Shown in pieces: positions 35,106 to 48,214 of a stretch of 64,000 nucleotides of DNA; position 1 is the first letter of the stretch, and every line of letters begins with the position of its first letter. The notes beneath the pieces were generated by a model. It ran no database searches and was not told the DNA's origin. It saw nothing but the letters and a program-made list of their open reading frames with translations. The stretch comes from Candidatus Hodarchaeaceae archaeon (GTDB lineage: Archaea; Hadarchaeota; Hadarchaeia; Hadarchaeales; Hadarchaeaceae). Where the stretch lies: the NCBI GenBank assembly GCA_030018135.1, contig JASEGJ010000001.1, forward strand, positions 74,991 through 138,990, in the 5' to 3' direction. The translations under genes were made by a program, and so were the position numbers.

Positions 35106-35831
35106 CTACTGCCTCTCCCTTCGCAACCCATACCACCCGAACGACGTCCCAGATGCTGTGAGCACGCCCTCGGCGATGTCGAGCATCGCCGCACGTTGGT
35201 CCTTCGCTTGAACTACGCCGGAGGCTATTATCACGCCCTCGGCGCCGAGCTGGAGCGCCACGCTGACATCCTCGCCTACTGAAATGCCCGCGCCGCAGAG
35301 CACCCGCACATCTGGGTTGACCTTGTGTACCTCCTCAACCGTGTTGCGCACGACATCCGGCTTAACCTTGGAGACGGAGATGCCGCTGCCTATGAGCTCC
35401 GGTGGCTCCACGGCTATCATGTCCGGCCCTAGGGCGGCAACCGACTTGCTTATGCTGACGTTGTCCGCACAGACGATGCTCACCATGCCGAGTTCTTTCA
35501 CGCGCTTGATGATCTGCTCTATGTCAAACAACCTTAGGCGGTGCTCGGAGTGGTTGACAAGCGCGCCTATCGCGCCCGCCTCCTTCGCCGCCTCAGGCAA
35601 AATCCAACCCGTGTGGCCGCCCGGTGAAATCGGATCGACGTGCTGCGCTAGCACCGGGATATCGACAACGCTCGCGACGCGATGGATATCAGCATGCTGC
35701 GGCGCGATTGCAACGCTTATGCCCTTTTCACTCGCAACCTCGACGATGAGCCTCGCGAGCTCCACCGCCCTCTCGCCAGTTGCGCTAGCATATGTTTTGA
35801 AATTCACTATCACGAGCGGTGTCTCGAGCAT
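35106..35831 (-). CDS. tpiA: triosephosphate isomerase (archaeal short type)
   Basis: VIVNFKTY N-terminus and archaeal TIM active-site region NHSEHR. Confidence 0.9.
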   Translation of the reverse strand: MLETPLVIVNFKTYASATGERAVELARLIVEVASEKGISVAIAPQHADIHRVASVVDIPVLAQHVDPISPGGHTGWILPEAAKEAGAIGALVNHSEHRLRLFDIEQIIKRVKELGMVSIVCADNVSISKSVAALGPDMIAVEPPELIGSGISVSKVKPDVVRNTVEEVHKVNPDVRVLCGAGISVGEDVSVALQLGAEGVIIASGVVQAKDQRAAMLDIAEGVLTASGTSFGWYGLRRERQ

Positions 35832-35891
35832 GCTCCACCGAACGAACTTTGCCCTGCGGGCTTTAAAAACCTCCCCACCAAACCTCCGAAT

Positions 35892-36989
35892 ATGCGCCGC
35901 CTGCTAGCTAGCATGTTCATCACCTCATTCGCCATGGGCATCGTCGGGCTAGTCCTCGTACTCTACGCAAAGGACCATCTAAACGCGAGCTATACCGAGA
36001 TTGGGCTGCTCGGGCCAGCGTATGCTACACTCCATGTCCCGCTCTCCGTGCCAGCTGGGCGCCTAGCCGACCGCCACGGCAGGGGGCCGCTTCTCACCCT
36101 CGGCCTCCTGTCGACTGCGTGCACTTTTCTGCTATATTCCCGTGCGAACACCGTGGCTTGGTTGCTTGTGGTGCGCCTGCTGCATGGCGCGGCGGAGGCA
36201 CCGATCTGGGTGAATGCTCAAAGCGCGGTGGTCGAGTTTTCGACTCCCATCAACCGCGGGCGGGCGATGGGTGCATATGGTGTATCTTGGGCGACGGGCT
36301 TTACGTTGGGGCCGTTCATCGGCGGTCTGCTGTCCGGAGCCATGCGTCCGATGTGGTCGTTCCTCATCGGCGCCGCCCTAACCCTCCTCGCAGCCGCGGT
36401 GACAGCAGGCGCCCACTTCCATAAGCCGAAGGTAACCCCTGAGAAAATGGCGCTGCGCGGCCTGCTGCCAGCCTGCTTGATAGGCATGCTCTATTTTGGC
36501 ATAGTCGCCATCGTCTTCACCCTCTTTCCGGCCTACGCCAGACAACTCGACATCTCCGAGCCGCGGATAGGGCTGTTATTGGCGCTATTCGGAGGGATCC
36601 GCATCGTGTTTTTGGTGCCCATGGGCGGGCTCTCAGATAGGTTTGGGAGCCGCCCAATCATCCTGCTGGGGATGCTCGGGCTGGCTGCCTCGCTGGCCAG
36701 CATAGCCGCAACGACGGAATATCTGATGTTCGTCGTCGCGGTCCTATTCCTCGGGATATCGGAGGGTGCGACCTACCCAGCGGTGATGAGCATGGTGTCA
36801 AAGGTAGGGGGGAATGAAAATCGCGGCTACGTGCTCGGTGTATTCAATGCTGTCGCCACGGTTGGCTGGGGCCTGCTACCCGGCGTCGGCGGGCTCACCG
36901 CGGACGTTCTCGGTCCGACGGCACCCTACCTGATGTGTGCACTCATAGCGCTGTCCATGTTTGCCTTCGTGTGGAGGTCCTCGCTGTGA
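35892..36989 (+). CDS. MFS-family transporter
   Basis: 12 predicted TM helices, GRLADRHGRGP MFS motif A; start at MRRLLASMF chosen to avoid overlap with tpiA. Confidence 0.75.
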   Translation: MRRLLASMFITSFAMGIVGLVLVLYAKDHLNASYTEIGLLGPAYATLHVPLSVPAGRLADRHGRGPLLTLGLLSTACTFLLYSRANTVAWLLVVRLLHGAAEAPIWVNAQSAVVEFSTPINRGRAMGAYGVSWATGFTLGPFIGGLLSGAMRPMWSFLIGAALTLLAAAVTAGAHFHKPKVTPEKMALRGLLPACLIGMLYFGIVAIVFTLFPAYARQLDISEPRIGLLLALFGGIRIVFLVPMGGLSDRFGSRPIILLGMLGLAASLASIAATTEYLMFVVAVLFLGISEGATYPAVMSMVSKVGGNENRGYVLGVFNAVATVGWGLLPGVGGLTADVLGPTAPYLMCALIALSMFAFVWRSSL

Positions 36990-37453: not shown

Positions 37454-38146
37454 CTATCTAAGCTTTGACGACCGCATGAATCTTAAGAAATCTTTTTTTG
37501 ACCTCAGGACAACGCAGCCGCCCTCGTAGCCCACGAATACTATGTCGGCAGAATTGACAAACAGGCCATTCTCCACGGCACCCGGCACGTGGTCGAGGGC
37601 TTCCTCGAGTTCAGCTGGATGGGGGATCGAGTCGAATTTAACATCGACGATATAATTCCCGTTGTCGGTTACGAACGGCATGCGCTCCCTAGTCATGCGC
37701 AGCACTGGCTTGCCATTGAGTTCGGCCAGCCTCCGCATGGTGTACTTTTGCACGAACGGCAATATCTCGACGGGCACCGGCCTGCGCTCGCCCAATCGCC
37801 TCACGAGCTTGGTGCGATCGACGATTATCGCGATCCTCTTCGACGCACTCATCAGTATTTTCTCCCGCGTATGGGCTCCTCCGCGCCCCTTTATCATGTT
37901 AAAGTTCGGATCTATCTCGTCGGCGCCGTCGATCATCAGGTCGAGCTTGGGATACTCGTCCGACGTGCTCAAGCGCAATCCCCTGCCCGCCGCGAACTTT
38001 TGAATTGCGAACGAGCTCGGCACGAAGGTGGCGTTAATCTCGCGCTCGGCTAGGATGCGGACGACATGAGCAACCGTCGTGCCAGAACCCAAGCCGACGA
38101 CCATTCTTCCTCTAACAAGCTTCGCTGCAGCCTTCGCGGCCGCCAT
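37454..38146 (-). CDS. rpiA: ribose-5-phosphate isomerase A
   Basis: GLGSGTTV, DGADEID, KGRGGAHTREK motifs; longest ORF extends to 38242. Confidence 0.85.
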   Translation of the reverse strand: MAAAKAAAKLVRGRMVVGLGSGTTVAHVVRILAEREINATFVPSSFAIQKFAAGRGLRLSTSDEYPKLDLMIDGADEIDPNFNMIKGRGGAHTREKILMSASKRIAIIVDRTKLVRRLGERRPVPVEILPFVQKYTMRRLAELNGKPVLRMTRERMPFVTDNGNYIVDVKFDSIPHPAELEEALDHVPGAVENGLFVNSADIVFVGYEGGCVVLRSKKDFLRFMRSSKLR

Positions 38147-38235
38147 CTTCCATTCCTCGACCACCAAAGCAAGCCCAAGTGAAGCTTCTAACGCTGGGGG
38201 CTTAATAATTTCCTCTACGACATTATTAAATAGCG

Positions 38236-38796
38236 TTGACAATATTTGAAAATGGTGAGGCTGTGAAACGCGTCATACCAGTTAGGGCTGCGATGACCGA
38301 AAAAGTTCTCACGGCTGGCCCTAGGACAACAGTTGCCAAGGCCGCTAAGCTCATGAGCGAGCGCGGCGTCGGTAGCATCATTATCACTCAAGGCAAGAAG
38401 CCGGTGGGCATCCTAACGGAGCGAGACCTGCTCATGAAAGTCGTTTCCGTGGACCTACGACCCAGCAAGGTACTCGTCAGCAAGGTGATGTCGAGTCCGG
38501 TCTTAACTGTCGGTCCCGAGACGGAAGTTGCCGAGGCTGCCCGAGTCATGATCCGCAATAGGATCAGGCGCCTGCCCGTCGTTGACCGCGGGCGCCTCGT
38601 CGGAATCGTAACAGCGAGCGATATCACTGCGATCTCGCCGGAACTTATAGAGGTGTTACCGGAGCGCCCGGAACTGCCACCCCGTGAGGAGATAGATGAG
38701 AGCGTCTGCGAGGTCTGCGGCGAGGTGACCGCCTCACTTCACGAAGTAAATGGCATGTGGGTTTGTGAAAATTGTCGCGACTTTTTGGGCGGGTAG
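38236..38796 (+). CDS. CBS-domain pair protein with C-terminal zinc ribbon
   Basis: two CBS motifs then CEVCGEV…CENC. Confidence 0.7.
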   Translation: MTIFENGEAVKRVIPVRAAMTEKVLTAGPRTTVAKAAKLMSERGVGSIIITQGKKPVGILTERDLLMKVVSVDLRPSKVLVSKVMSSPVLTVGPETEVAEAARVMIRNRIRRLPVVDRGRLVGIVTASDITAISPELIEVLPERPELPPREEIDESVCEVCGEVTASLHEVNGMWVCENCRDFLGG

Positions 38797-38804
38797 ATGA
38801 TGTC

Positions 38805-39620
38805 ATGGCCTGCCGCGATATGCTCATGCGAACTCGCGTTAGCGAAGTGATGCAACCCTGCTCGTGCTTCGTCAGTTCGCGCGACTTGGTGACCAAGGCC
38901 CGCTCACTTATGCGCACCAGCGGCCTTCGAACGTTGCCCGTCGTCGACGATGGCAAGCTGACAGGCATCATAACCGCGCGGCAAATGCTTCGCGTTACCT
39001 CAACCCGCTCAAACATCCCGGTGGCGGGTTTGATGTTCCCCCCTAGGCTTGTGGCTACGCCAGACGACACCATCGGGAAGCTCGTCAAGGATATGATCGA
39101 ACTCGAGATTTCGGCCGTGCCCGTCGTCAAAAGCGTTAGCGACCGAACGATATCCGGCATCGTTGGGCTCGATGACATACTAAGACATATCTCCAAGTCT
39201 TCAAAGCCAAAACTAACGGTGGAGAGAATAATGAAAAGGAAGGTCGCCACATGCACCCCCACGGATGAAATCTCGCGGGTATGGGACATTATGGAGGAAG
39301 CCCACTTCTCCGGCCTGCCTGTCGTGCGTTACGACAAGCGCAAGCGTGCGCTAGAGGTCATAGGCATGATAACCCGCTCGGACATCATTCGCTCGGGAGC
39401 GACGAGGCTGGCCGAGGAGTCCGACAAGGGGCGCTTCCGGAGCCCGCCTCGCGTAAAGAGCCTCATGCGAACCCCCGCTATAACGGCATCCCCTAACATG
39501 TCCCTCTCCGATGCCGTTGAGCTGATGCTGAAGCGCAACATCGGTCGCTTGCCAGTTGTTGAGGACGGCAAGCTAGTTGGGATCGTCAGCCGCGGCGATG
39601 TGATAAAAGCCTGCCTGTAG
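38805..39620 (+). CDS. CBS-domain protein (four CBS repeats)
   Basis: repeated hxxxGhhT/S…RLPVV CBS signatures. Confidence 0.7.
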   Translation: MACRDMLMRTRVSEVMQPCSCFVSSRDLVTKARSLMRTSGLRTLPVVDDGKLTGIITARQMLRVTSTRSNIPVAGLMFPPRLVATPDDTIGKLVKDMIELEISAVPVVKSVSDRTISGIVGLDDILRHISKSSKPKLTVERIMKRKVATCTPTDEISRVWDIMEEAHFSGLPVVRYDKRKRALEVIGMITRSDIIRSGATRLAEESDKGRFRSPPRVKSLMRTPAITASPNMSLSDAVELMLKRNIGRLPVVEDGKLVGIVSRGDVIKACL

Positions 39621-39718
39621 GCGAGCGAATGCGAAGGTTACCCCACGTTGGCTATAAGTCGCGCGACCGGGGCCCGCTGGAGTTCAAATCTAGGCTGAGG
39701 AGGGAGGAGGGCAACATC

Positions 39719-40534
39719 ATGCCGATCGCGCGGCGGAATGTTTTAACCATTCCTCCAACCGTGCGGATAAAAGATGCGGCGGAGTTGATGGTCAAAAATA
39801 AGGTCCGAAGGCTCCCCATAACGGACCCCGGTACGAAACGACTGATCGGCATCGTTACAACGCGCGATATAATAGATTTCCTCGGCGGGGGCGAGCGATC
39901 TAAAATCATCCAAAATAAGTTCAAGGGCAATTTCCTCGCTGCGGTGAACGACCCCATTCGCACGATAATGTCGGAGAAAGTTGTTCATGGAACATTTGAC
40001 ATGTCGATCAAGGATGTTGCAAAGCTTTTGTTGAGAACGGGCGTTGGGGGCGCGCCCATCCTCGACGAACGGGCGCACGTCGTTGGCATGGTATCGGAGC
40101 GAGATTTTGTCCCATACGTACCGATTGCCGCAGGGATTCTAGTGGGCTATCACATGACTCGAAAAGTTGTGACCGCCGAGCCCGAGCTGCAGATCAAAGA
40201 AGCCGCTCGGCGGATGGTTTCCAGGGGCGTACGCCGCCTGCCGGTCGTCTGCGACCGGGAGCTCGTTGGGATCGTCACGAGCGTCGATATCCTCCGGTAC
40301 TTTGGTACGAGCGAGATGTTTGAGCACATGGCCCATGGAAGGGTGGACGAGGCAATGTCGGTTGGGGTCGATAGGATAATGACGAGCAAGGTACTCACGG
40401 TAACGCCGCAAACTGACATAGGCGAGGCGGCTGCGCTGATGGTCGAGCGCGGCTGCGGCGGCTTACCTGTTGTAGAAAGGGATGAACTCGTGGGCATAAT
40501 GACCGAGCGCAACGTGCTGGAGTTGTTAATTTGA
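39719..40534 (+). CDS. CBS-domain protein (four CBS repeats)
   Basis: CBS signatures; start at internal Met MPIARRNV. Confidence 0.7.
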   Translation: MPIARRNVLTIPPTVRIKDAAELMVKNKVRRLPITDPGTKRLIGIVTTRDIIDFLGGGERSKIIQNKFKGNFLAAVNDPIRTIMSEKVVHGTFDMSIKDVAKLLLRTGVGGAPILDERAHVVGMVSERDFVPYVPIAAGILVGYHMTRKVVTAEPELQIKEAARRMVSRGVRRLPVVCDRELVGIVTSVDILRYFGTSEMFEHMAHGRVDEAMSVGVDRIMTSKVLTVTPQTDIGEAAALMVERGCGGLPVVERDELVGIMTERNVLELLI

Positions 40535-41397
40535 AGGTTGTCGACGTTATGAGCTCGCCCGTGGTTGCGATAGGGTCTACGGGGCCAATAGCACATGCAA
40601 AGAACCTGATGTTGCGCCACGACATAAAACGTCTTGTTGTGGTCGAGCGAGGGGGCCCGGTCGGAATAGTTTCAATGAGCGATCTCGCGGAGCGCCTTGA
40701 CAGCGGAACCTCAGCTTGGCGACGACGCCCCATCGATCGCATTCCGATCGCGCGGGTGATGAGCAAAAACTTGATTACGGTGTCACCAGGCACCGATTTG
40801 AGCGAGGCCGCCAGGTTGCTGCTGAAGCACGGCATTAGTAGCTTGGTAATAACCGAGGGCAAAAAACTTATCGGTATCCTGACAAAGACGGATTTGGCGC
40901 GCTTCTTCGCTAAAAATTTGAGAGGTCGAGCGATGGTTCGAGAGCTGATGAGCACAAGTGTAATAACCGTGAACCGTCGACACTCGCTCGCTCACGTCGT
41001 CGAACTCATGGAAAGAAATAACGTGGGTCGTGTGGTGGTCGTGGATGGCGCTAAGCCGATAGGCACAGTGACTGCAAGCGATGTAGCATTCGCGCAGCTC
41101 GAAAGACCAGTCGAGGGCATAGCTCGACGCGAACTCAAATTCACGAGAAAACCTGCGCGAGCCGATAGGCCAAAATATAGATACGTGAAGTATGTCGCCC
41201 TGCTTACCGCTGAGGATATGATGAGGTCTGAGCTGCTCACCGTCGAAGCGGGCGAAGATGCCGCAATGGCGGCTGAGCGAATGCTCAAGTATGGGAAAAG
41301 CGGTCTGCCGGTCGTCGAGCGTGGCGAGTTGGTGGGCATCCTGACGAAGACCGACTTCACTAAAGGAATCGCGAGGCTTGGACGAAATGCGCGTTAG
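40531..41397 (+). CDS. CBS-domain protein (four CBS repeats)
   Basis: CBS signatures; 4-nt overlap with upstream paralog. Confidence 0.7.
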   Translation: MKVVDVMSSPVVAIGSTGPIAHAKNLMLRHDIKRLVVVERGGPVGIVSMSDLAERLDSGTSAWRRRPIDRIPIARVMSKNLITVSPGTDLSEAARLLLKHGISSLVITEGKKLIGILTKTDLARFFAKNLRGRAMVRELMSTSVITVNRRHSLAHVVELMERNNVGRVVVVDGAKPIGTVTASDVAFAQLERPVEGIARRELKFTRKPARADRPKYRYVKYVALLTAEDMMRSELLTVEAGEDAAMAAERMLKYGKSGLPVVERGELVGILTKTDFTKGIARLGRNAR

Positions 41398-42181
41398 TCA
41401 AATAATGACCCCAAATGTCATTACCATAGACAAGGATATATCGCTGGCCGAGGCGATAGGACAAATGCGACGCCACGAGATATCGCGCCTAGTGGTCACG
41501 GATGCTGGAAAGATCGATGGAATCGTCACGGAGCGGGATATTGCTCGAGAATTGGGCTCGACGCGCAGCTACCGTTTGCCCCCTGGTAGGATGCACGTTT
41601 CAAACGTCATGACTGCCAATCCGGTGACGGTCGCACCCGACATCACGGCAAAGCGCGCCGCCGAACTCATGCTCGATAACGACATCAGTGGGTTGCCGGT
41701 AGTTGAGGATGACAAACTGGCCGGCATCGTCACGAAAATGGATTTCGCAAAGGTATGCATGGGTTTTGATGATATTTTCGCGGGGCAGATTATGCAGTCC
41801 AGCCCGCGAACCGCCACGCCAAGCGACCGCGTGATACATGCACGCAGGTTGCTGTTTGAAGAGGACCTAATTAGCCTGCCCGTGGTCGAGGCGGGCGAAC
41901 TCGTGGGCATCGTAACGGTGCGGGATATTGCGATGTGCCTCGCCGCGTTTCAGGAGGTGGTGCCGGACAGGCACAAGAGCGAGCGCATCCGCAATTTGTT
42001 GGTCGAGGACATCATGACCCAGCCGGCGACAACCACGCATACCGACGCAAAGCTTTCCGACATCGCACGCGTCATGTTCGAGCGACGCTTTTCCAGCTTG
42101 CCGGTGCTCAACTTGGAGGACGAGCTCGTCGGTTTGGTCACGAGGACCGAGCTGACCGAGGTCGCGCGGGAGCGCCTTTGA
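41378..42181 (+). CDS. CBS-domain protein (four CBS repeats)
   Basis: CBS signatures; fifth tandem paralog. Confidence 0.7.
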   Translation: MDEMRVSQIMTPNVITIDKDISLAEAIGQMRRHEISRLVVTDAGKIDGIVTERDIARELGSTRSYRLPPGRMHVSNVMTANPVTVAPDITAKRAAELMLDNDISGLPVVEDDKLAGIVTKMDFAKVCMGFDDIFAGQIMQSSPRTATPSDRVIHARRLLFEEDLISLPVVEAGELVGIVTVRDIAMCLAAFQEVVPDRHKSERIRNLLVEDIMTQPATTTHTDAKLSDIARVMFERRFSSLPVLNLEDELVGLVTRTELTEVARERL

Positions 42182-42273
42182 TGTCTCGAGCGGGCTAGTT
42201 TTCGTACCGGTGACGAAGCTGAACGTTAAGATTAAGTCGACATGGTCGTTATGAGCCAAGCGCCGGAGGGGGC

Positions 42274-42849
42274 ATGCCGATGAAGATAAAGCTCACGCGC
42301 ACGTTGCTACTGAAGGCCTTCCTTGCACAAGTGGTACTTTTCATCACGCTGGCCTTAGCAATCGCTTGGTGGCGAGGGTGGCTCAAGGATCTAGGACTGA
42401 ACCTCCAAAATCCAACCTTCGGCGTAGCGGCGGGCTTGATCGTGGGCGCAGCCATGGGCGCCGCTTCGATCGCATGCGATGAAGTGGGGCTCAAAAACCC
42501 ACTTGCTGATGAGATCTCCCGCACCCTAACCTTGAGCGACATCCTGTTTGTAAATCTCGTGCTGATTGCGCCCAGCGAGGAAATCTTCTTCAGGGGGCTG
42601 CTCATCCCCAGGATAGGTTTAGCGCCGTCTGCAATCACGTTCGGCTTGGCGCATGTGGTTGGCTACCGCGCACTGAGCGAGGTCGTGGTGGCGACGGTTT
42701 TTGGGCTGGCGCTTGGCTGGCTCTTTCTATCATCTGGCAGTTTGCTTGGCCCGTGGCTGGCGCATGCTCTGGCGAATGTTGTAGCAATGGAGCATATCCA
42801 TCGGCGGGCCGGAAAAGGTCCCAAGCGATCGTCCGCGCGCGCTGGGTGA
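42274..42849 (+). CDS. CPBP-family intramembrane metalloprotease (CAAX protease / Abi family)
   Basis: EEIFFRGLL (EExxxR) and FGLAHV motifs, multiple TM helices. Confidence 0.75.
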   Translation: MPMKIKLTRTLLLKAFLAQVVLFITLALAIAWWRGWLKDLGLNLQNPTFGVAAGLIVGAAMGAASIACDEVGLKNPLADEISRTLTLSDILFVNLVLIAPSEEIFFRGLLIPRIGLAPSAITFGLAHVVGYRALSEVVVATVFGLALGWLFLSSGSLLGPWLAHALANVVAMEHIHRRAGKGPKRSSARAG

Positions 42850-42950: not shown

Positions 42951-43047
42951 GCGGCCGTGGTCCAGCCTGGTTAGGGCGTTAAGCGCCGCCAAAGGACCCA
43001 GGCTCCCCAAGCCTGTGGCGCGGGTTCGAATCCCGCCGGCCGCACCA
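42951..43047 (+). tRNA. tRNA gene with about 20-nt insertion near the D-arm/anticodon-stem junction, encoded CCA; probable Gly(CCC)
   Basis: acceptor GCGGCCG/CGGCCGC + A + CCA; D-stem GTCC with two candidate 3' partners (GGGC before, GGAC after the insertion); anticodon arm CAGGC-TCCCCAA-GCCTG (C at position 33); T-arm GCGGG-TTCGAAT-CCCGC. Confidence 0.55.
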
Positions 43048-43094: not shown

Positions 43095-44023
43095 ATGAAG
43101 ATGAGCATGCTATTCATGGTAGTACTTCCGCTTGCCATCTTGCCGTGCGTCCTAGCTGGCGTCCAAACTACTGGGGCCTCGTCGGTTGCGCAAGCGGCGG
43201 AGCCAAGCACGGTTAAAGCTGGCGTGTGGGTCATCTCGTTGACCCCGCTGGCGGGACTTTCACGATCGATTTTTACCTCTGGTTCAAGTACGGTGAGATA
43301 GAGCCAAATATCGAGTTTCTAAACGGGTCTCCATCGAGGTTCGAAAAGATAACCGAAAGGGAAAATTACATAGAATACCGCGTCAAGGGCATATTCGTAA
43401 AACCCCTTGATTTTAGGAACTTTCCGTTCGATGAGCACACTTTAACCGTCGAGCTGGAGGACAAGGAGTTCGATGCTTCCGAACTCGTATTTGAACCTGA
43501 TCTGGACGAAAGCGGGATGGACCCAGAATTGGCGATCGTTGGCTGGAGCGCCGAGGATTTTCGGATAAAATAAGAAAGATCACGCGTACCCGGGCGAAAA
43601 TTTCTCCCGGCTTATATTTGGGGTAAGAATTTACCGATCGAAGCTCTCGGCCATGTTCAAGAACTTTCTCCCCATTATCGTCATCACGTTGATATCCCTC
43701 TTGACCTTCGCGATCTCCGTTAAAAACTTCGGGCAGAGGGTTGGTATATGTGTGACGACTTTGATGTCCGCGGTTGCCTATCACCTAGCGGCACTCGGTG
43801 CGCTGCCGCCCTTAGGATACCTCACATTGCTTGATAGGGTCATGCTCGTCGTTTACACCCTGTTCTTGTACAATTTGGCGGTCTCCGTTCAAGCGATGAG
43901 ACTCGTGGAGGGGGAAAGGTGGCGGCGGCTGAAAAGTTTGAAACGAGGATGCAGAACTTCATCCCAGCATTGGTCGCGGTGCTATGTTTGGTTTACATAG
44001 GGTTTATCGGCTTTTTCGCCTGA
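43095..44023 (+). pseudogene. pentameric ligand-gated ion channel (prokaryotic Cys-loop / GLIC-ELIC-like), split over four frames by at least three frameshifts
   Basis: signal peptide (43095-, frame 0); ECD with TFTIDFYLW and Cys-loop-equivalent FPFDEHTL (frame 2, 43226-43573); M1-M3 with PIIVITLISLL and YLTLLDRVMLVVYTLFLYNL (frame 0, 43569-44000); M4 EKFETRMQNFIPALVAVLCLVYIGFIGFFA* (frame 2, ends 44023). Confidence 0.55.
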
Positions 44024-44587: not shown

Positions 44588-44983
44588 ATGAACGAAAGCG
44601 GCCAACTGATGGGTGTCCCTATAAAGCTCGTGATGGCGCTCGTCATAGGCACCATGACGATGGGCATATTGATGCAGTTTGTCGGCACGGCCGAGCGAAC
44701 TATACTCAGGGACATGAAGGTGACATTTCCTCGCACAACCAGCGACAATCTGACGGTTAAGGTCTTCGATGCCCAAAGCGGGGATGCCTTAGGCGATGCA
44801 ACTATTGTGGTCAAGTACCCCGGAGGCATGAAGGCCCACACTTGCGGCGAGAGCTCAAATCAGAACAGGTTTAGCATACCTATGAATGGCGCCGATTGCG
44901 TCGTCGTGACCGTGCGGGTAACCCGCCACGGCTACATCCCGTGGGAAGGGGAGGTCGCGGTGACGGCAGCCAAGAAGAAGTAG
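44588..44983 (+). CDS. pilin-like protein with class-III-like signal peptide (first gene of putative operon)
   Basis: MNESG/QLMGVPIKLVMALVIGTMTMGIL: short polar N-terminus then about 22 hydrophobic residues; TATA-like TTTATAAAG about 40 bp upstream. Confidence 0.45.
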   Translation: MNESGQLMGVPIKLVMALVIGTMTMGILMQFVGTAERTILRDMKVTFPRTTSDNLTVKVFDAQSGDALGDATIVVKYPGGMKAHTCGESSNQNRFSIPMNGADCVVVTVRVTRHGYIPWEGEVAVTAAKKK

Positions 44984-44990
44984 TGATAGC

Positions 44991-45413
44991 ATGGAACTGC
45001 GGTGCGATATCGTGGGCATCGAGACCTTACCAGTGACATTGTTGCTCGGCACGATAATCGGCGCTTGTGCGCTCGGGCTCGGGGCCAGATGCCTAACCAA
45101 CTTGCAAAGCCTGACGGAGAAACAGCGAGCGACCGAGAGCTTTGATGCCCTTGTGGAGCGGGCAACGGCAGTCGGCATGGGCGGTGCTGGTGGCAGGCAG
45201 CGGGTCGAACTTGACCTGCCCAACAGCAAGATAGTCTGCCGCGGAAGGCTCCTACAGCTTGTTTTGGACGATGAGATACGAAGGAGCAAAATCATGCCCC
45301 TGCCGATCCTCGTCGATGGCAACGATGCATGGGAAATCAATACCGGGTACTACGAGATCGAACTCCGCCGAGATAATTTTGGCAATTGTCTCCTAAAGCT
45401 GCGGAGGCTTTGA
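44991..45413 (+). CDS. pilin-like protein (N-terminal hydrophobic helix)
   Basis: MELRCDIVG/IETLPVTLLLGTIIGACALGLGA. Confidence 0.4.
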   Translation: MELRCDIVGIETLPVTLLLGTIIGACALGLGARCLTNLQSLTEKQRATESFDALVERATAVGMGGAGGRQRVELDLPNSKIVCRGRLLQLVLDDEIRRSKIMPLPILVDGNDAWEINTGYYEIELRRDNFGNCLLKLRRL

Positions 45414-45841
45414 CGATGAACCAGCATGGATTGCTCATGGATTTTCTATTTTGCAAGATCGGCGTGGCGCTCGCGGCGATATCGTTGATCGGCGCTTCCA
45501 TGGCAATGTCATCAAGCTTTCAACGCGAGACAGGACGGGATGAGCTAGCGGCGGTGGGAGATACTATTGCACGCGCAATTTTTGCGGCTGATGCCATGCC
45601 CGGCGAGGTGCAACTTGTGCGCGAACTTCCACCCCTTCGACAACAGTTTAGGATTACAATCGTTGGCGCTCGCAGCGACGGCATGCAAGTTGTCCACGTA
45701 CTCGTGGACGGTCGAAGTCAGGATAGACGCGTAATAATGGTGGGGAACAAGGTCAACGGCGGCGAGTTTGAGTTCAGCTACAGCAACCCCTCGATTGTTA
45801 TGGTGAGCAAAAATGAGCAAATTTTCTTGGGGTTGGTCTAA
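45386..45841 (+). CDS. pilin-like protein (N-terminal hydrophobic helix)
   Basis: …NQHG/LLMDFLFCKIGVALAAISLIGASMA; overlaps upstream gene end. Confidence 0.4.
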   Translation: MSPKAAEALTMNQHGLLMDFLFCKIGVALAAISLIGASMAMSSSFQRETGRDELAAVGDTIARAIFAADAMPGEVQLVRELPPLRQQFRITIVGARSDGMQVVHVLVDGRSQDRRVIMVGNKVNGGEFEFSYSNPSIVMVSKNEQIFLGLV

Positions 45842-46294
45842 TTGGATCAACTTTCGGTTGGCGAGGACCTTTTCGCGACGCTCATCGTTGCCAGCCTAGC
45901 AGTACTGTTCGTTGCGGCGCTAGTGCACTCCTACCATGTGTACGCTGAGCGAAAAAATGCCCAAGAGGGCTTAAGCCTAGCGCTCGACATCGCGAACCAG
46001 CTTAAAAATGAAGTCTTAGCCAAGCACGAGAACTATGTATGCCCCGGACTCATCAACCTAAAGACATTCGACAAGGAACTTTCAAGATACCACCAACTGC
46101 TCTTTAAACAGGGGATAAAGCTACGCGTCGAGGTTAGAAAGCTAGACGGTGAGCTCGCCCTAGCTTATGGCGCCAAAGCCAGCCAGCTCGGTCGATATTT
46201 CTCGCCCCCATGCTCCGTGAGCCTTCCTGTCACCATTGCCGAAACGCCCGCATCCCGCTCGCTCGGTGAGCTGATAGTGTGGGTTTGGAGGTAG
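45842..46294 (+). CDS. pilin-like protein (N-terminal hydrophobic helix)
   Basis: MDQLSVG/EDLFATLIVASLAVLFVAALV. Confidence 0.4.
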   Translation: MDQLSVGEDLFATLIVASLAVLFVAALVHSYHVYAERKNAQEGLSLALDIANQLKNEVLAKHENYVCPGLINLKTFDKELSRYHQLLFKQGIKLRVEVRKLDGELALAYGAKASQLGRYFSPPCSVSLPVTIAETPASRSLGELIVWVWR

Positions 46295-46298
46295 CAAA

Positions 46299-46958
46299 AT
46301 GGACAGACGCGGTCAAGGGCATGTGGTCGACATGTTGGTTTTTGCGTTGATGGTAACTCTCGCGTGCTCGCTCTTAGTTAAGGCAAGCCCGGTTGAGTCT
46401 CGGGCGATAAACGATCGCTACGCCGCCAACCTCGCACAAAGTATATTGTTGACGCTTCAAAACGCGACTGCGGACGAGTTCGGGGGCCTTGAATATTCGC
46501 TTGATCTTCGGACGGCTTGGGGGCCTAGCGAGCGCAAGTTAAAACACAAAACACTGGCACAGCTGTTGGTTGAGGATGCGCTTTGCAACCTGCGCGCAGA
46601 GATCAACGGTCGTGAAGTCGCGGGGCTTAGGTCGAGCCAAGATCTAGACAATAAAGTCCACAAGTTCTTGACTGACGTACTAAGCAAGCTGATCGGCGGG
46701 CGTTTTGACTACAGCTTGACGGCGAGGGCGGAATCCTTAAAAATCTCGTCAACTGTTCGAGTTTATTTTGAGACCTCGATCAAAAGCTTGAGCGGCGAGG
46801 AGCAGCGGCAGCAAATTTGTTCAGAAACGATCGCGATGAGTTTGCCCATCCCCAAGCAGGAGTTAGTTGTGCGCCTCCTGAGCATAAATCCGATCGAGCT
46901 CTTTCAACTTGAGCCGGAAATTGCCGTTGAAATAACTCTCAGCTTGTGGTCGAGATGA
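46299..46958 (+). CDS. pilin-like protein with canonical class-III signal (RRG/Q)
   Basis: MDRRGQGHVVDMLVFALMVTLACSLLV: KR-G-Q followed by hydrophobic stretch, the archetypal prepilin peptidase (PibD/FlaK) substrate pattern. Confidence 0.5.
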   Translation: MDRRGQGHVVDMLVFALMVTLACSLLVKASPVESRAINDRYAANLAQSILLTLQNATADEFGGLEYSLDLRTAWGPSERKLKHKTLAQLLVEDALCNLRAEINGREVAGLRSSQDLDNKVHKFLTDVLSKLIGGRFDYSLTARAESLKISSTVRVYFETSIKSLSGEEQRQQICSETIAMSLPIPKQELVVRLLSINPIELFQLEPEIAVEITLSLWSR

Positions 46959-48214
46959 TGGAAAAGCACGGCTTCATGCCGTTCAGCGCAGCGGGTTTTC
47001 TCATTGTGATGCTAGTTGTCGCGATGATCGGGCGTGCGGCGTGGTCGCAACATCATCAAACCATGAACGCGATCGATGACATCAACAGCATGTCGCTTTT
47101 AACCGTTACCGCGGGCGTTCAAAACGATCTTCGACATGTGGCGCGCTACGCGGTTTACAGGGCGCTCTGGCAGGTCTGCAAGCATGCTGATGACTACAAA
47201 AACGATGAGGCGCGTGTACAAGCGATTGAAAAGCTTGCAGCTGAGTACTTCCTCAAACATGCCGAAGGGCTACCGCAGGCCTACATTAGTGCGCGCGTCA
47301 GGCTTGAGCTTCCCGACGGCCAGCCATCCTTTAATCTGCGGCAGGCAGAAAACGGATATGTGCTCGCCAGGGTTGAATTGCCCGGGCAGGCACGCATAGG
47401 GATCAGTTCCCTCGACAACGGTACCAAGCTCACGCTTTCCTGCACTGGTTTCGAGGTTTGGGTTGATTGCCGCTATTTCCTGTTGCAGGAACGCATGCGC
47501 AAGTTTGTCGATGATATCGATGAAGTTTGCTCAAGTTGGATGCGCGCCGAGTATGCTGCGGCCTGGGGACAGGCGTTGATGGGCCAGGTTTGGCTAAACG
47601 ACAAACGCAGCAGGGCCCTTTTCGAGCTGGCTTGGAAGAATCACGAGCTTAATACCTTTGGGTCGGCCGACTATCTTGAAATGCCCACATCGGCGGAGTT
47701 TAACATGAGCGCACCTTCGGACATCAACTTTAACTCAAACATTGATATCGCGCCGGTGAGCGTTGCCGACGCACAAAGGATAGAGGGCCATATCGACCGC
47801 GCCCTCGCAGCCCTTCGCCGTGCGGAGGTGGGGTTGAAAAATGCCGAGGGATCGATCGAGGTGGCGCTCGACATCGTTCGAAAAAATTCCATTCTGTCAG
47901 AAAACTTGGATGCCAAAAGCGCCATGCTCGGCAACGTGAAAAAGGAGCTAAACAAGGCCATTGAAACGCTAGAAAAGGCTGGGAGCGACGTTCGAGAAGT
48001 TGGCATGGAGTTTGAGCAACTCGTCGCATTCGTAAAAGGTAAGGCCGAGGGTAACCTGTTGATGAAATTGCTCTATCGTGGCTTGACCTCCTCCGACGGC
48101 AACTACCCGCCGCTGGCGCAACGCGTCTCTTTGGGCCTTGCGGGGGTTGAGGACAAATTAATGGGACTGTCGGTGGCAAATGAACAATATGCAGAAGCTC
48201 AGCGCATCGGATAA
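46946..48214 (+). CDS. large (422 aa) pilin-like / pilus-associated protein with class-III-like N-terminus and C-terminal coiled coil
   Basis: …EKHG/FMPFSAAGFLIVMLVVAMIG then about 390 aa soluble region ending in heptad-rich segment. Confidence 0.4.
   Translation: MVEMMEKHGFMPFSAAGFLIVMLVVAMIGRAAWSQHHQTMNAIDDINSMSLLTVTAGVQNDLRHVARYAVYRALWQVCKHADDYKNDEARVQAIEKLAAEYFLKHAEGLPQAYISARVRLELPDGQPSFNLRQAENGYVLARVELPGQARIGISSLDNGTKLTLSCTGFEVWVDCRYFLLQERMRKFVDDIDEVCSSWMRAEYAAAWGQALMGQVWLNDKRSRALFELAWKNHELNTFGSADYLEMPTSAEFNMSAPSDINFNSNIDIAPVSVADAQRIEGHIDRALAALRRAEVGLKNAEGSIEVALDIVRKNSILSENLDAKSAMLGNVKKELNKAIETLEKAGSDVREVGMEFEQLVAFVKGKAEGNLLMKLLYRGLTSSDGNYPPLAQRVSLGLAGVEDKLMGLSVANEQYAEAQRIG

Follow-up and report, generated by a model that had tools for sequence, protein, structure and literature searches.

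What do five consecutive genes act on when they encode nothing but CBS domains and have no effector in sight? The question is raised by a 64,000-nucleotide stretch of contig JASEGJ010000001.1 from an uncultured Hadarchaeota archaeon (hereafter the window), in which one gene for a CBS pair and four genes for proteins with four CBS repeats each (tetrads) follow one another on the forward strand between positions 38236 and 42181, with a gene for a CPBP intramembrane protease behind them. An original prediction made from the sequence had seen stand-alone sensors of adenosine ligands regulating a partner, with the protease as the only neighbouring enzyme. Our analysis indicates that the region is very probably a five-gene operon, z-sriA-sriB-sriC-sriD, whose tetrad proteins are orthologues of the Sri ribosome-hibernation factors of Methanosarcina acetivorans. 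The description of the proteins as CBS-only holds, but the sensor idea is superseded: the tetrads correspond to hibernation factors that occlude tRNA and mRNA sites, so that the missing effector would be the ribosome. Such genes are currently annotated as "CBS domain-containing protein" or even "IMP dehydrogenase", and recognizing them as sriABCD would give a concrete function to a conspicuous gene array of the Hadarchaeota, as yet uncultured archaea of the subsurface to whose ecology slow growth and dormancy are central.

The tetrad genes match SriA to SriD one to one

The Sri proteins ("single ribosomal subunit inhibitors") are encoded by the sriABCD operon of M. acetivorans (Nissley et al., bioRxiv 10.64898/2026.01.19.700200; Nat Commun 2026, PMC13454478), and cryo-electron microscopy (cryo-EM) entries of them are available (9ZNF, 9ZNG, 9ZNI; PMC13454478). 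In sequence searches of the PDB, the top match of each tetrad gene in the window is its own chain of the SriA-D/70S entries. Gene 2 (sriA) finds 9znf_4 with an E-value of 3e-52, while the next family follows at 3e-22 and the next Sri chain at 2e-18; gene 3 (sriB) finds 9znf_5 at 2.4e-62, gene 4 (sriC) finds 9zni_6 at 5.4e-58 with residues 1-280 aligned to 1-280, and gene 5 (sriD) finds 9zng_7 and 9zni_7 at about 1e-45 (9e-46 for 9zng_7; next family 6e-26). The margins over other chains are large, with the exception of MJ1225 from Methanocaldococcus jannaschii (3KH5, 3LFZ), a protein of SriB type that resembles the core of gene 3 over 265 residues (3e-55 to 4e-55).

This is further supported by reciprocal best BLASTP matches of all five genes to MA4647 and SriA-D of M. 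acetivorans (MA4648-MA4651; reference locus L081), with identities of 35, 40, 40, 37 and 37 %, respectively. SriA scores 182 bits against M. acetivorans SriA and at most 67 against the other Sri proteins, and the 37 % identity of SriD refers to a full-length alignment without large gaps. Published membership in the Sri families is defined by the best-scoring model together with the subtree; assigned here by BLASTP and PDB search scores, SriA, which at 271 amino acids lies in the range of 100-500 amino acids and holds four CBS repeats and no other family, scores best to SriA, and SriD scores best to SriD and is encoded directly after sriC. By these matches the tetrad genes are one-to-one orthologues of M. 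acetivorans SriA-SriD, and both organisms have four separate tetrad genes in the same order, with sriA first and sriD last (reciprocal best matches of 37-40 %). The two loci differ in their spacers, which measure 300-430 nucleotides in M. acetivorans and at most 14 in the window, in phylum (Hadarchaeota for the window) and in charge, as SriA, SriB and SriC of the window are much more basic (isoelectric point about 10).

The likeness of gene 3 to MJ1225 raises the question whether the tetrads might rather be HhpR-type CBS-tetrad transcription factors or subunits of the kind of the gamma subunit of AMP-activated protein kinase (AMPK). MJ1225 was deposited as a putative archaeal gamma-AMPK homologue, the tetrads show weak partial NCBIfam matches to HhpR, and the AHA paper puts HhpR in the same archaeal CBS-tetrad core as Sri. 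However, the HhpR scores reach 50-75 bits against a cut-off of 520, an ORF (open reading frame) and Pfam scan of the region revealed no kinase, beta-subunit gene or DNA-binding domain, and every gene fits its own Sri chain far better than the other chains. The alignment of MJ1225 begins only at residue 30 of gene 3; without an N-terminal extension to reach the peptidyl-transferase centre, this protein seems to correspond to the class termed "SriB-short", which the Sri paper handles separately. We therefore regard a role as HhpR-type factors or kinase subunits as very improbable.

CBS tetrads also serve as ribosome-occluding modules in Dri (dual ribosomal subunit inhibitor of Pyrobaculum calidifontis; 9E6Q, 9E7F) and in Hib/HibA/AHA, and SriC of the window matches the C-terminal lobe of Dri (9e6q_3, 1.4e-22). 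Dri is one polypeptide of more than 500 amino acids with two tetrads, whereas in the window every tetrad has an ORF to itself that ends in its own stop codon. Hib/HibA/AHA consist of an SriA-like CBS tetrad fused to HPF/RaiA, whereas a Pfam scan of the five window proteins returns only CBS and no further domain; the additional effector domain that had been considered as a possible finding is thus absent from these searches.

The original prediction had called five CBS genes in a row unusual. According to the published survey, 1,636 archaeal species (23 %) possess sri genes, 529 of them with sriA-D in synteny, and a figure includes Hadarchaeota (PMC13454478). The array of the window thus belongs to a known and common kind. 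Judged against the literature of 2026, sriABCD of Hadarchaeota is ordinary, and the remaining interest lies in the conserved and unstudied gene z.

A compact array of old paralogues

The layout given in the original prediction, five packed CBS-only genes followed by the CPBP gene on the same strand, could be reproduced for all six ORFs. Gene z (38236-38796, 186 amino acids, or 177 from 38263) contains two Pfam CBS stretches (2e-30), and four CBS stretches (1e-52 to 1e-57) are found in each of sriA (38772-39620, 282 amino acids, or 271 from 38805), sriB (39629-40534, 301 amino acids), sriC (288 amino acids from TTG 40531 or 282 from ATG 40549, to 41397) and sriD (267 amino acids from TTG 41378 or 264 from ATG 41387, to 42181). 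The lengths were as predicted except for the third gene, which has 301 rather than about 270 amino acids. The coupling was described correctly as well: sriB and sriC overlap by 4 nucleotides and sriC and sriD by 20 (or 11), and the spacing between the genes ranges from -25 to +14 nucleotides, depending on the choice of start codon. The same six genes are present on a near-identical contig of 5.6 kb (L082), where they are called with 177, 271, 301, 282, 264 and 191 amino acids.

The five CBS paralogues share only 24-38 % identity in pairwise comparison and hence are old duplicates, none of them recent. With this divergence and with synteny that is widely conserved, the concern that they might be near-identical recent copies falls away. 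The nearest database proteins come from metagenome-assembled genomes (MAGs) of Hadarchaeota ("Hadesarchaea"), with 99 % identity to gene 1 and 100 % to gene 4 over the aligned region.

Ribosome-binding elements and nucleotide pockets

Functional SriB and SriC are distinguished from "short" forms by an N-terminal extension and a basic loop, respectively (PMC13454478), and both elements are shared between M. acetivorans and the window. SriB starts at ATG 39629 with a basic extension of 30 amino acids (MRRLPHVGYKSRDRGPLEFKSRLRREEGNI, nucleotides 39629-39718 of the forward strand, net charge +5). The nearest in-frame stop codon upstream lies at 39560, so that 30 amino acids are the maximum extension. 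The 30 residues before the internal ATG 39719 are kept at the protein level in other phyla, and the gene caller on the near-identical contig likewise gives SriB 301 amino acids. HMMER aligns residues 15-30 of the query to residues 46-61 of M. acetivorans SriB, starting inside the extension, and MAFFT widens this match, including a PH motif, to about 25 residues (positions 31-56). By HMMER and MAFFT, used in place of the authors' hmmalign, more than 15 extension residues thus align to M. acetivorans residues 27-56, as in the long form. The motif in the extension is common to Hadarchaeota, Methanobacteriota, Hydrothermarchaeota and Methanosarcina.

Within sriB, in the segment 39690-39721, a strong Shine-Dalgarno-like GGAGGGAGGAGGG (also given as GGAGGAGGG) is located just upstream of the in-frame ATG 39719, which coincides with a methionine at the same position in many aligned SriB sequences of Hadarchaeota and Methanobacteriota. 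This ATG could give a second, extension-less "SriB-short" isoform from sriB; alternatively, GGAGGGAGGAGGG may simply represent the codons of a conserved R-E-E-G.

In SriC, the ribosome-binding loop (ERPVEGIARRELKFTRKPARADRPKYRYVKYVALLT, nucleotides 41101-41208, forward strand) reads ERPVEG…KFTRKPARADRPKYRYVKYV and corresponds to residues 191-225 of M. acetivorans SriC. The motif K-[FM]-[TA]-R-K…YRYVK is kept without deletion, and the net charge of +7 compares with +5 in M. acetivorans, so the window protein has the long positive loop of the long form. Each Sri protein has ribose-binding motifs of the type G-h-h-S/T-x-x-D in two to four of its CBS units, and z has them in both of its units; S/T-x-x-D occurs in three CBS units each of sriC and sriD. 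As this signature is kept, adenylate control is plausible for the window proteins.

Some observations weigh against a full functional equivalence of the Hadarchaeota and Methanosarcina proteins. The identity to the characterized Sri proteins is only 37-40 %, and the source is a MAG of an uncultured organism. In addition, the SriB extension of 30 amino acids has half the length of that in M. acetivorans (61 amino acids) and may therefore reach less far down the exit tunnel. Orthology, gene order, ribosome-binding elements and operon structure are nevertheless all legible in the window sequence itself, and we consider the assignment to sriABCD very probable.

Proposed hibernation mechanism

Each of the four M. 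acetivorans proteins inhibits translation in vitro (PMC13454478). Without sriABCD, the lag following 28 days of stationary phase is 32 % longer, and the cells suffer a loss of 30S subunits and of the 16S rRNA 3' end (PMC13454478). On the ribosome, SriA is located in the A and P sites of the large subunit and the SriB extension enters the peptidyl-transferase centre and the tunnel, while SriD occupies the A site and decoding centre of the small subunit and SriC the P/E region, where it sequesters the anti-Shine-Dalgarno end (PMC13454478). SriA/SriB and SriC/SriD bind as pairs with conserved interfaces (PMC13454478), to which the hetero-oligomers suggested in the original prediction come close. 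ARC-P and ARC-A of Methanolobus provide an independent account of what appears to be the SriC/SriD pair, equated here by binding sites and architecture as described rather than by their sequences, and they behave in the same manner. On the small subunit, ARC-P occupies the P/E sites and ARC-A occupies the A site, both via basic occlusion elements; the CBS pockets contain AMP, and ATP leads to release from the ribosome (Zhu et al., bioRxiv 10.64898/2026.01.19.700304). The ARC-P/ARC-A paper contains no discussion of the SriA/SriB pair or the z gene.

From these studies of Methanosarcina and Methanolobus we transfer ribosome binding, translation inhibition and nucleotide control to the Hadarchaeota proteins by homology. 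In cells short of energy, SriA would sit in the A and P tRNA sites of the large subunit, and SriB would dock on SriA and thread its basic N-terminal extension into the peptidyl-transferase centre. On the small subunit, SriD would fill the A site and decoding centre and SriC the P/E region, with its basic loop holding the 3' end of the 16S rRNA and uS11. Jointly the four proteins would halt translation and shield rRNA from nucleases, and dormant cells would thereby retain their ribosomes and recover faster. For SriC/SriD, AMP in the CBS pockets would keep the pair bound and ATP would release it.

Gene z probably heads the operon and encodes an acidic Cys4 knuckle

Gene z encodes a protein of 177 amino acids from GTG 38263 (38263-38796, forward strand), the length at which its close relatives are annotated; in this protein a linker connects the CBS pair to an acidic Cys4 ribbon. 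The ribbon, whose position at the end of the first protein was predicted correctly, is encoded by nucleotides 38707-38775 of the forward strand (CEVCGEVTASLHEVNGMWVCENC, CxxC-15-CxxC). The z protein is the orthologue and reciprocal best match of MA4647; the two are 34.6 % identical across their whole length, ribbon included (GICESC…LVNGRYLCENCR in MA4647), so that M. acetivorans shares a dual-CBS gene with the same Cys4 ribbon directly upstream of sri. Homologues follow the consensus G-x-C-E-x-C-G-x7-L-x-E-V-[ND]-G-x3-C-E-x-C-[RK], and all 57 homologues analysed that have a ribbon are acidic over ribbon and tail (median net charge -7).

Aligning the 160 nucleotides that precede the first gene of the window array with those of 12 Hadarchaeota loci reveals three conserved elements on the 5' side of z: an archaeal TATA box (TTATTAAATA, 38223-38232), an AT-rich proximal element (CAATATTTGAAAA, 38240-38252) and a Shine-Dalgarno-like GGTGAGG (38254-38260), all on the forward strand. 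They recur at a fixed distance from the start codon in the 13 sequences as (A)AAG-TTTAAATA (B recognition element/TATA box), AATATTGAAA and GGTGA/G. A conserved promoter of this kind is located upstream of z only, and the elements at 38223-38260 likely serve all five genes as promoter and ribosome-binding site. Together with the gap of merely 8 nucleotides between z and sriA, this indicates that in Hadarchaeota the operon probably begins with z. The conserved sequence AATATT between TATA box and start codon is palindromic, which would suit an operator and an AT-rich proximal element equally and counts neither way. An Rfam scan of the region (E <= 0.01) returned no structured RNA or riboswitch, only a tRNA downstream.

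To see how widely z accompanies sri, we classified the ORFs of 80 loci from GTDB species genomes, retrieved with a SriC alignment; 71 of these have at least 700 nucleotides upstream of the first sri gene and are informative, and all counts run from sri loci outward. In 60 of the 71, the gene immediately before the first sri gene, in the same orientation, is a z homologue, and 54-56 of these homologues bear the ribbon. We regard z as a conserved companion of the sri genes. The order z-A-B-C-D is found in 48 of the 80 loci, and where sri genes are missing, z precedes whichever comes first (z-BCD, z-ACD, z-CD or z-C). The lineages with z include Hadarchaeota, Methanobacteriota, Hydrothermarchaeota, JACRDV01, Methanomethylicota and others, in addition to M. 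acetivorans. In Methanobacteriaceae, the stop and start codons of z and sri overlap or abut (-8, -4 or 0 nucleotides).

Four loci (L070, L073, L077 and L079; Methanodesulfokora, a Pyrodictiaceae MAG and a Nitrososphaerota-labelled MAG) contain, upstream of the sri cluster, a z-like CBS pair of 155-164 amino acids without the Cys4 ribbon, so the ribbon is dispensable or was lost in some lineages. Two loci have a split sri gene, each either a pseudogene or a sequencing frameshift: sriB forms two ORFs in a Methanobacteriaceae MAG (L028, 8906-9848), and sriD forms two ORFs in archaeon SCG-AAA382B04 (L055, 10867-11680).

In the AlphaFold2 model of z (mean confidence score pLDDT 84), a flexible linker joins a CBS pair to a small beta-knuckle. 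Of the PDB proteins in the 50 best Foldseek matches, just one aligns to the full length of the model, TA0289 of Thermoplasma acidophilum (1PVM, 2QH1), titled "CBS-rubredoxin-like protein" in the PDB and bound to Fe2+ in 2QH1. Like z, it combines an N-terminal CBS pair with a C-terminal Cys4 metal knuckle of similar size, and 174-177 columns align with a TM score of 0.66 and 25-27 % identity; the relative orientation of the domains differs, with a root mean square deviation of about 10 Å. TA0289 is not known to be connected with ribosomes. Homology of the ribbons is a different matter. A profile of 13 linker-plus-ribbon regions of z did not retrieve TA0289 from the PDB at E-values up to 10, and phmmer aligns z and TA0289 over the CBS part only (residues 17-132). 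The best profile matches in the PDB were a LIM domain (0.006), desulforedoxin (0.06) and eL37, uS14, eL43 and bL32 (about 0.2); we regard them as generic, non-significant zinc-knuckle matches, and a homology of the z ribbon to TA0289 or to ribosomal zinc ribbons is not supported. In a search of 1.84 billion representatives with z, 13 of the 150 best matches were of z type (170-190 amino acids, one full-length match) and all 13 bore the ribbon, in a ranking dominated by long multi-CBS proteins with summed scores.

Possible roles of the z protein

As far as sequences can tell, the adjacency of z to sri is conserved, co-expression is probable, the nucleotide-binding motifs appear intact and the putative metal knuckle is acidic. 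The literature has so far passed z by. MA4647 is mentioned once, as a "dual CBS domain gene immediately upstream", and set aside (PMC13454478). The 2025-26 papers on CBS-type hibernation factors treat tetrads only, and term searches of their texts found no ribbon, rubredoxin, zinc-ribbon or TA0289 protein; specifically, the HibA paper does not mention ribbon, rubredoxin or TA0289, and the AHA paper has none of zinc, rubredoxin and TA0289. One of the papers on CBS-type hibernation factors filters out proteins of up to 200 amino acids. A literature search found no paper combining CBS, zinc ribbon, ribosome, archaea and hibernation.

CBS pairs, or Bateman modules, commonly dimerize into discs of four CBS domains. 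This, together with a linkage to sri that is conserved, tight and translationally coupled and a sequence constraint (bits per residue) similar to that of the Sri genes, could suggest that z is itself a fifth hibernation factor, whose homodimer forms a tetrad-like disc on the ribosome. Native and reconstituted ribosome structures from Methanosarcina or Methanolobus, however, report no such density, z is devoid of a basic occlusion element as found in SriB, SriC and SriD, and the uniformly acidic ribbon and tail make direct RNA binding unlikely. A z protein that occludes the ribosome on its own is in our view improbable.

A second possibility is that z is unrelated to Sri, its position reflecting inherited gene order, or that it is only an autoregulator of the operon. 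In M. acetivorans, reads did not span the 354-nucleotide gap between MA4647 and sri, unlike the gaps within the operon, which gives a single sriABCD transcript (PMC13454478), while z appears to be co-transcribed in the window. The two-domain architecture of TA0289 is the same, and several Thermoproteota sri loci have no z or a ribbon-less one. A zinc ribbon could furthermore bind DNA, and there is a weak match to a ribbon of Rrn7/TFIIB type (E = 0.009). On the other hand, z has kept its place next to sri in at least six phylum-level lineages even as the flanks of the cluster change, it stands directly before the first sri gene irrespective of whether this is A, B or C, and the overlapping stop and start codons in Methanobacteriaceae imply expression together with Sri. 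For an autoregulator, the acidic ribbon would make a poor DNA binder. We therefore consider an unrelated or purely autoregulatory z somewhat unlikely.

The reading that we tentatively put forward, as a possibility and at less than even confidence, is that z is an overlooked fifth component of the Sri system, a nucleotide- and/or redox- or metal-sensing accessory that times the loading or leaving of the Sri proteins. We hypothesize an accessory role for z rather than that of an RNA-binding factor. The Bateman module of z could mediate this timing, or the acidic ribbon and tail could cover the basic elements by which the Sri proteins bind the ribosome. Several points speak against such an accessory: the missing reads between MA4647 and sri, the lack of ribosome density for a z-type protein in both cryo-EM studies, of Methanosarcina and of Methanolobus (PMC13454478; bioRxiv 10.64898/2026.01.19.700304), the ribbon-less or absent z in some Thermoproteota-type and Korarchaeota sri loci, and a locus sample dominated by Methanobacteriaceae and Hadarchaeota.

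If z is such an accessory, it would answer an open question of the Sri paper, namely how Sri proteins can be expressed during growth while translation is not blocked. It may also be the regulator of when the hibernation factors bind, which the Sri authors list as unknown. As z travels with sri across phyla and is promoter-proximal in Hadarchaeota, MA4647 offers a genetically tractable candidate.

The CPBP protease is a local neighbour

The sixth gene (42274-42849, forward strand) encodes a CPBP/Rce1-like intramembrane protease of 191 amino acids, which belongs to Pfam PF02517 (6.8e-14, 52.4 bits against a gathering cut-off of 22.4). It starts 92 nucleotides after sriD, on the same strand and with only a weak T-run in between. 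CBS pairs are known to regulate the archaeal site-2 protease, whose entry 5g5r is among the PDB matches, and the five proteins hold CBS domains only. One might thus see generic stand-alone adenosine-ligand sensors that regulate a neighbouring enzyme, here the CPBP protease. A functional or conserved partnership was rejected by phmmer and jackhmmer searches of all ORFs of the 80 sri loci: in none of them does a CPBP gene adjoin the sri cluster, and the homologues found are confined to six Methanobacterium loci, where they lie on the opposite strand at a distance of about 7 kb. A CPBP gene beside sriD occurs only in the window and on the near-identical contig, and the gene after sriD varies among the nine other Hadarchaeota loci that extend far enough to show one. 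Moreover, the tetrad genes are individually orthologous to particular ribosome-binding factors. Regulation of the protease by the array is hence exceedingly improbable, and we retain sriABCD as the assignment of the tetrad genes.

Surroundings of the array

Upstream of z, in the window and on the near-identical contig, lies a divergent gene for ribose-5-phosphate isomerase A (37454-38242, reverse strand). In other Hadarchaeota loci (L001-L016) the upstream alignment is conserved well past the promoter, which suggests a coding flank there as well, presumably rpiA. Further upstream in the window are genes for triose-phosphate isomerase (35106-35831, reverse strand) and a major facilitator superfamily transporter (35682-36989, forward strand).

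Downstream, about 100 nucleotides after the CPBP gene, the forward strand carries a tRNA gene of 97 nucleotides (42951-43047; Rfam tRNA, 52.9 bits), which ARAGORN reports as "tRNA-???", suggesting an archaeal intron-containing tRNA. It is followed at 43095-44000 (forward strand) by three short ORFs in different frames that resemble one broken gene: the first (43095-43301) has a signal-peptide-like N-terminus, the second (43226-43573) has no Pfam match, and the third (43653-44000) matches Neur_chan_memb, the transmembrane region of neurotransmitter-gated ion channels, at 6.7e-5 and below the gathering score. The three could stem from a gene for a pentameric ligand-gated ion channel, which would be uncommon in archaea, with either a frameshift or an assembly error in it. 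Four consecutive ORFs of 131-151 amino acids, several of them with hydrophobic N-termini, follow on the forward strand at 44588-46294, and two larger ones at 46299-46958 and 46946-48214, all without a Pfam match. The ORFs at 44588-48214 may form an archaeal pilus or surface-structure cluster.

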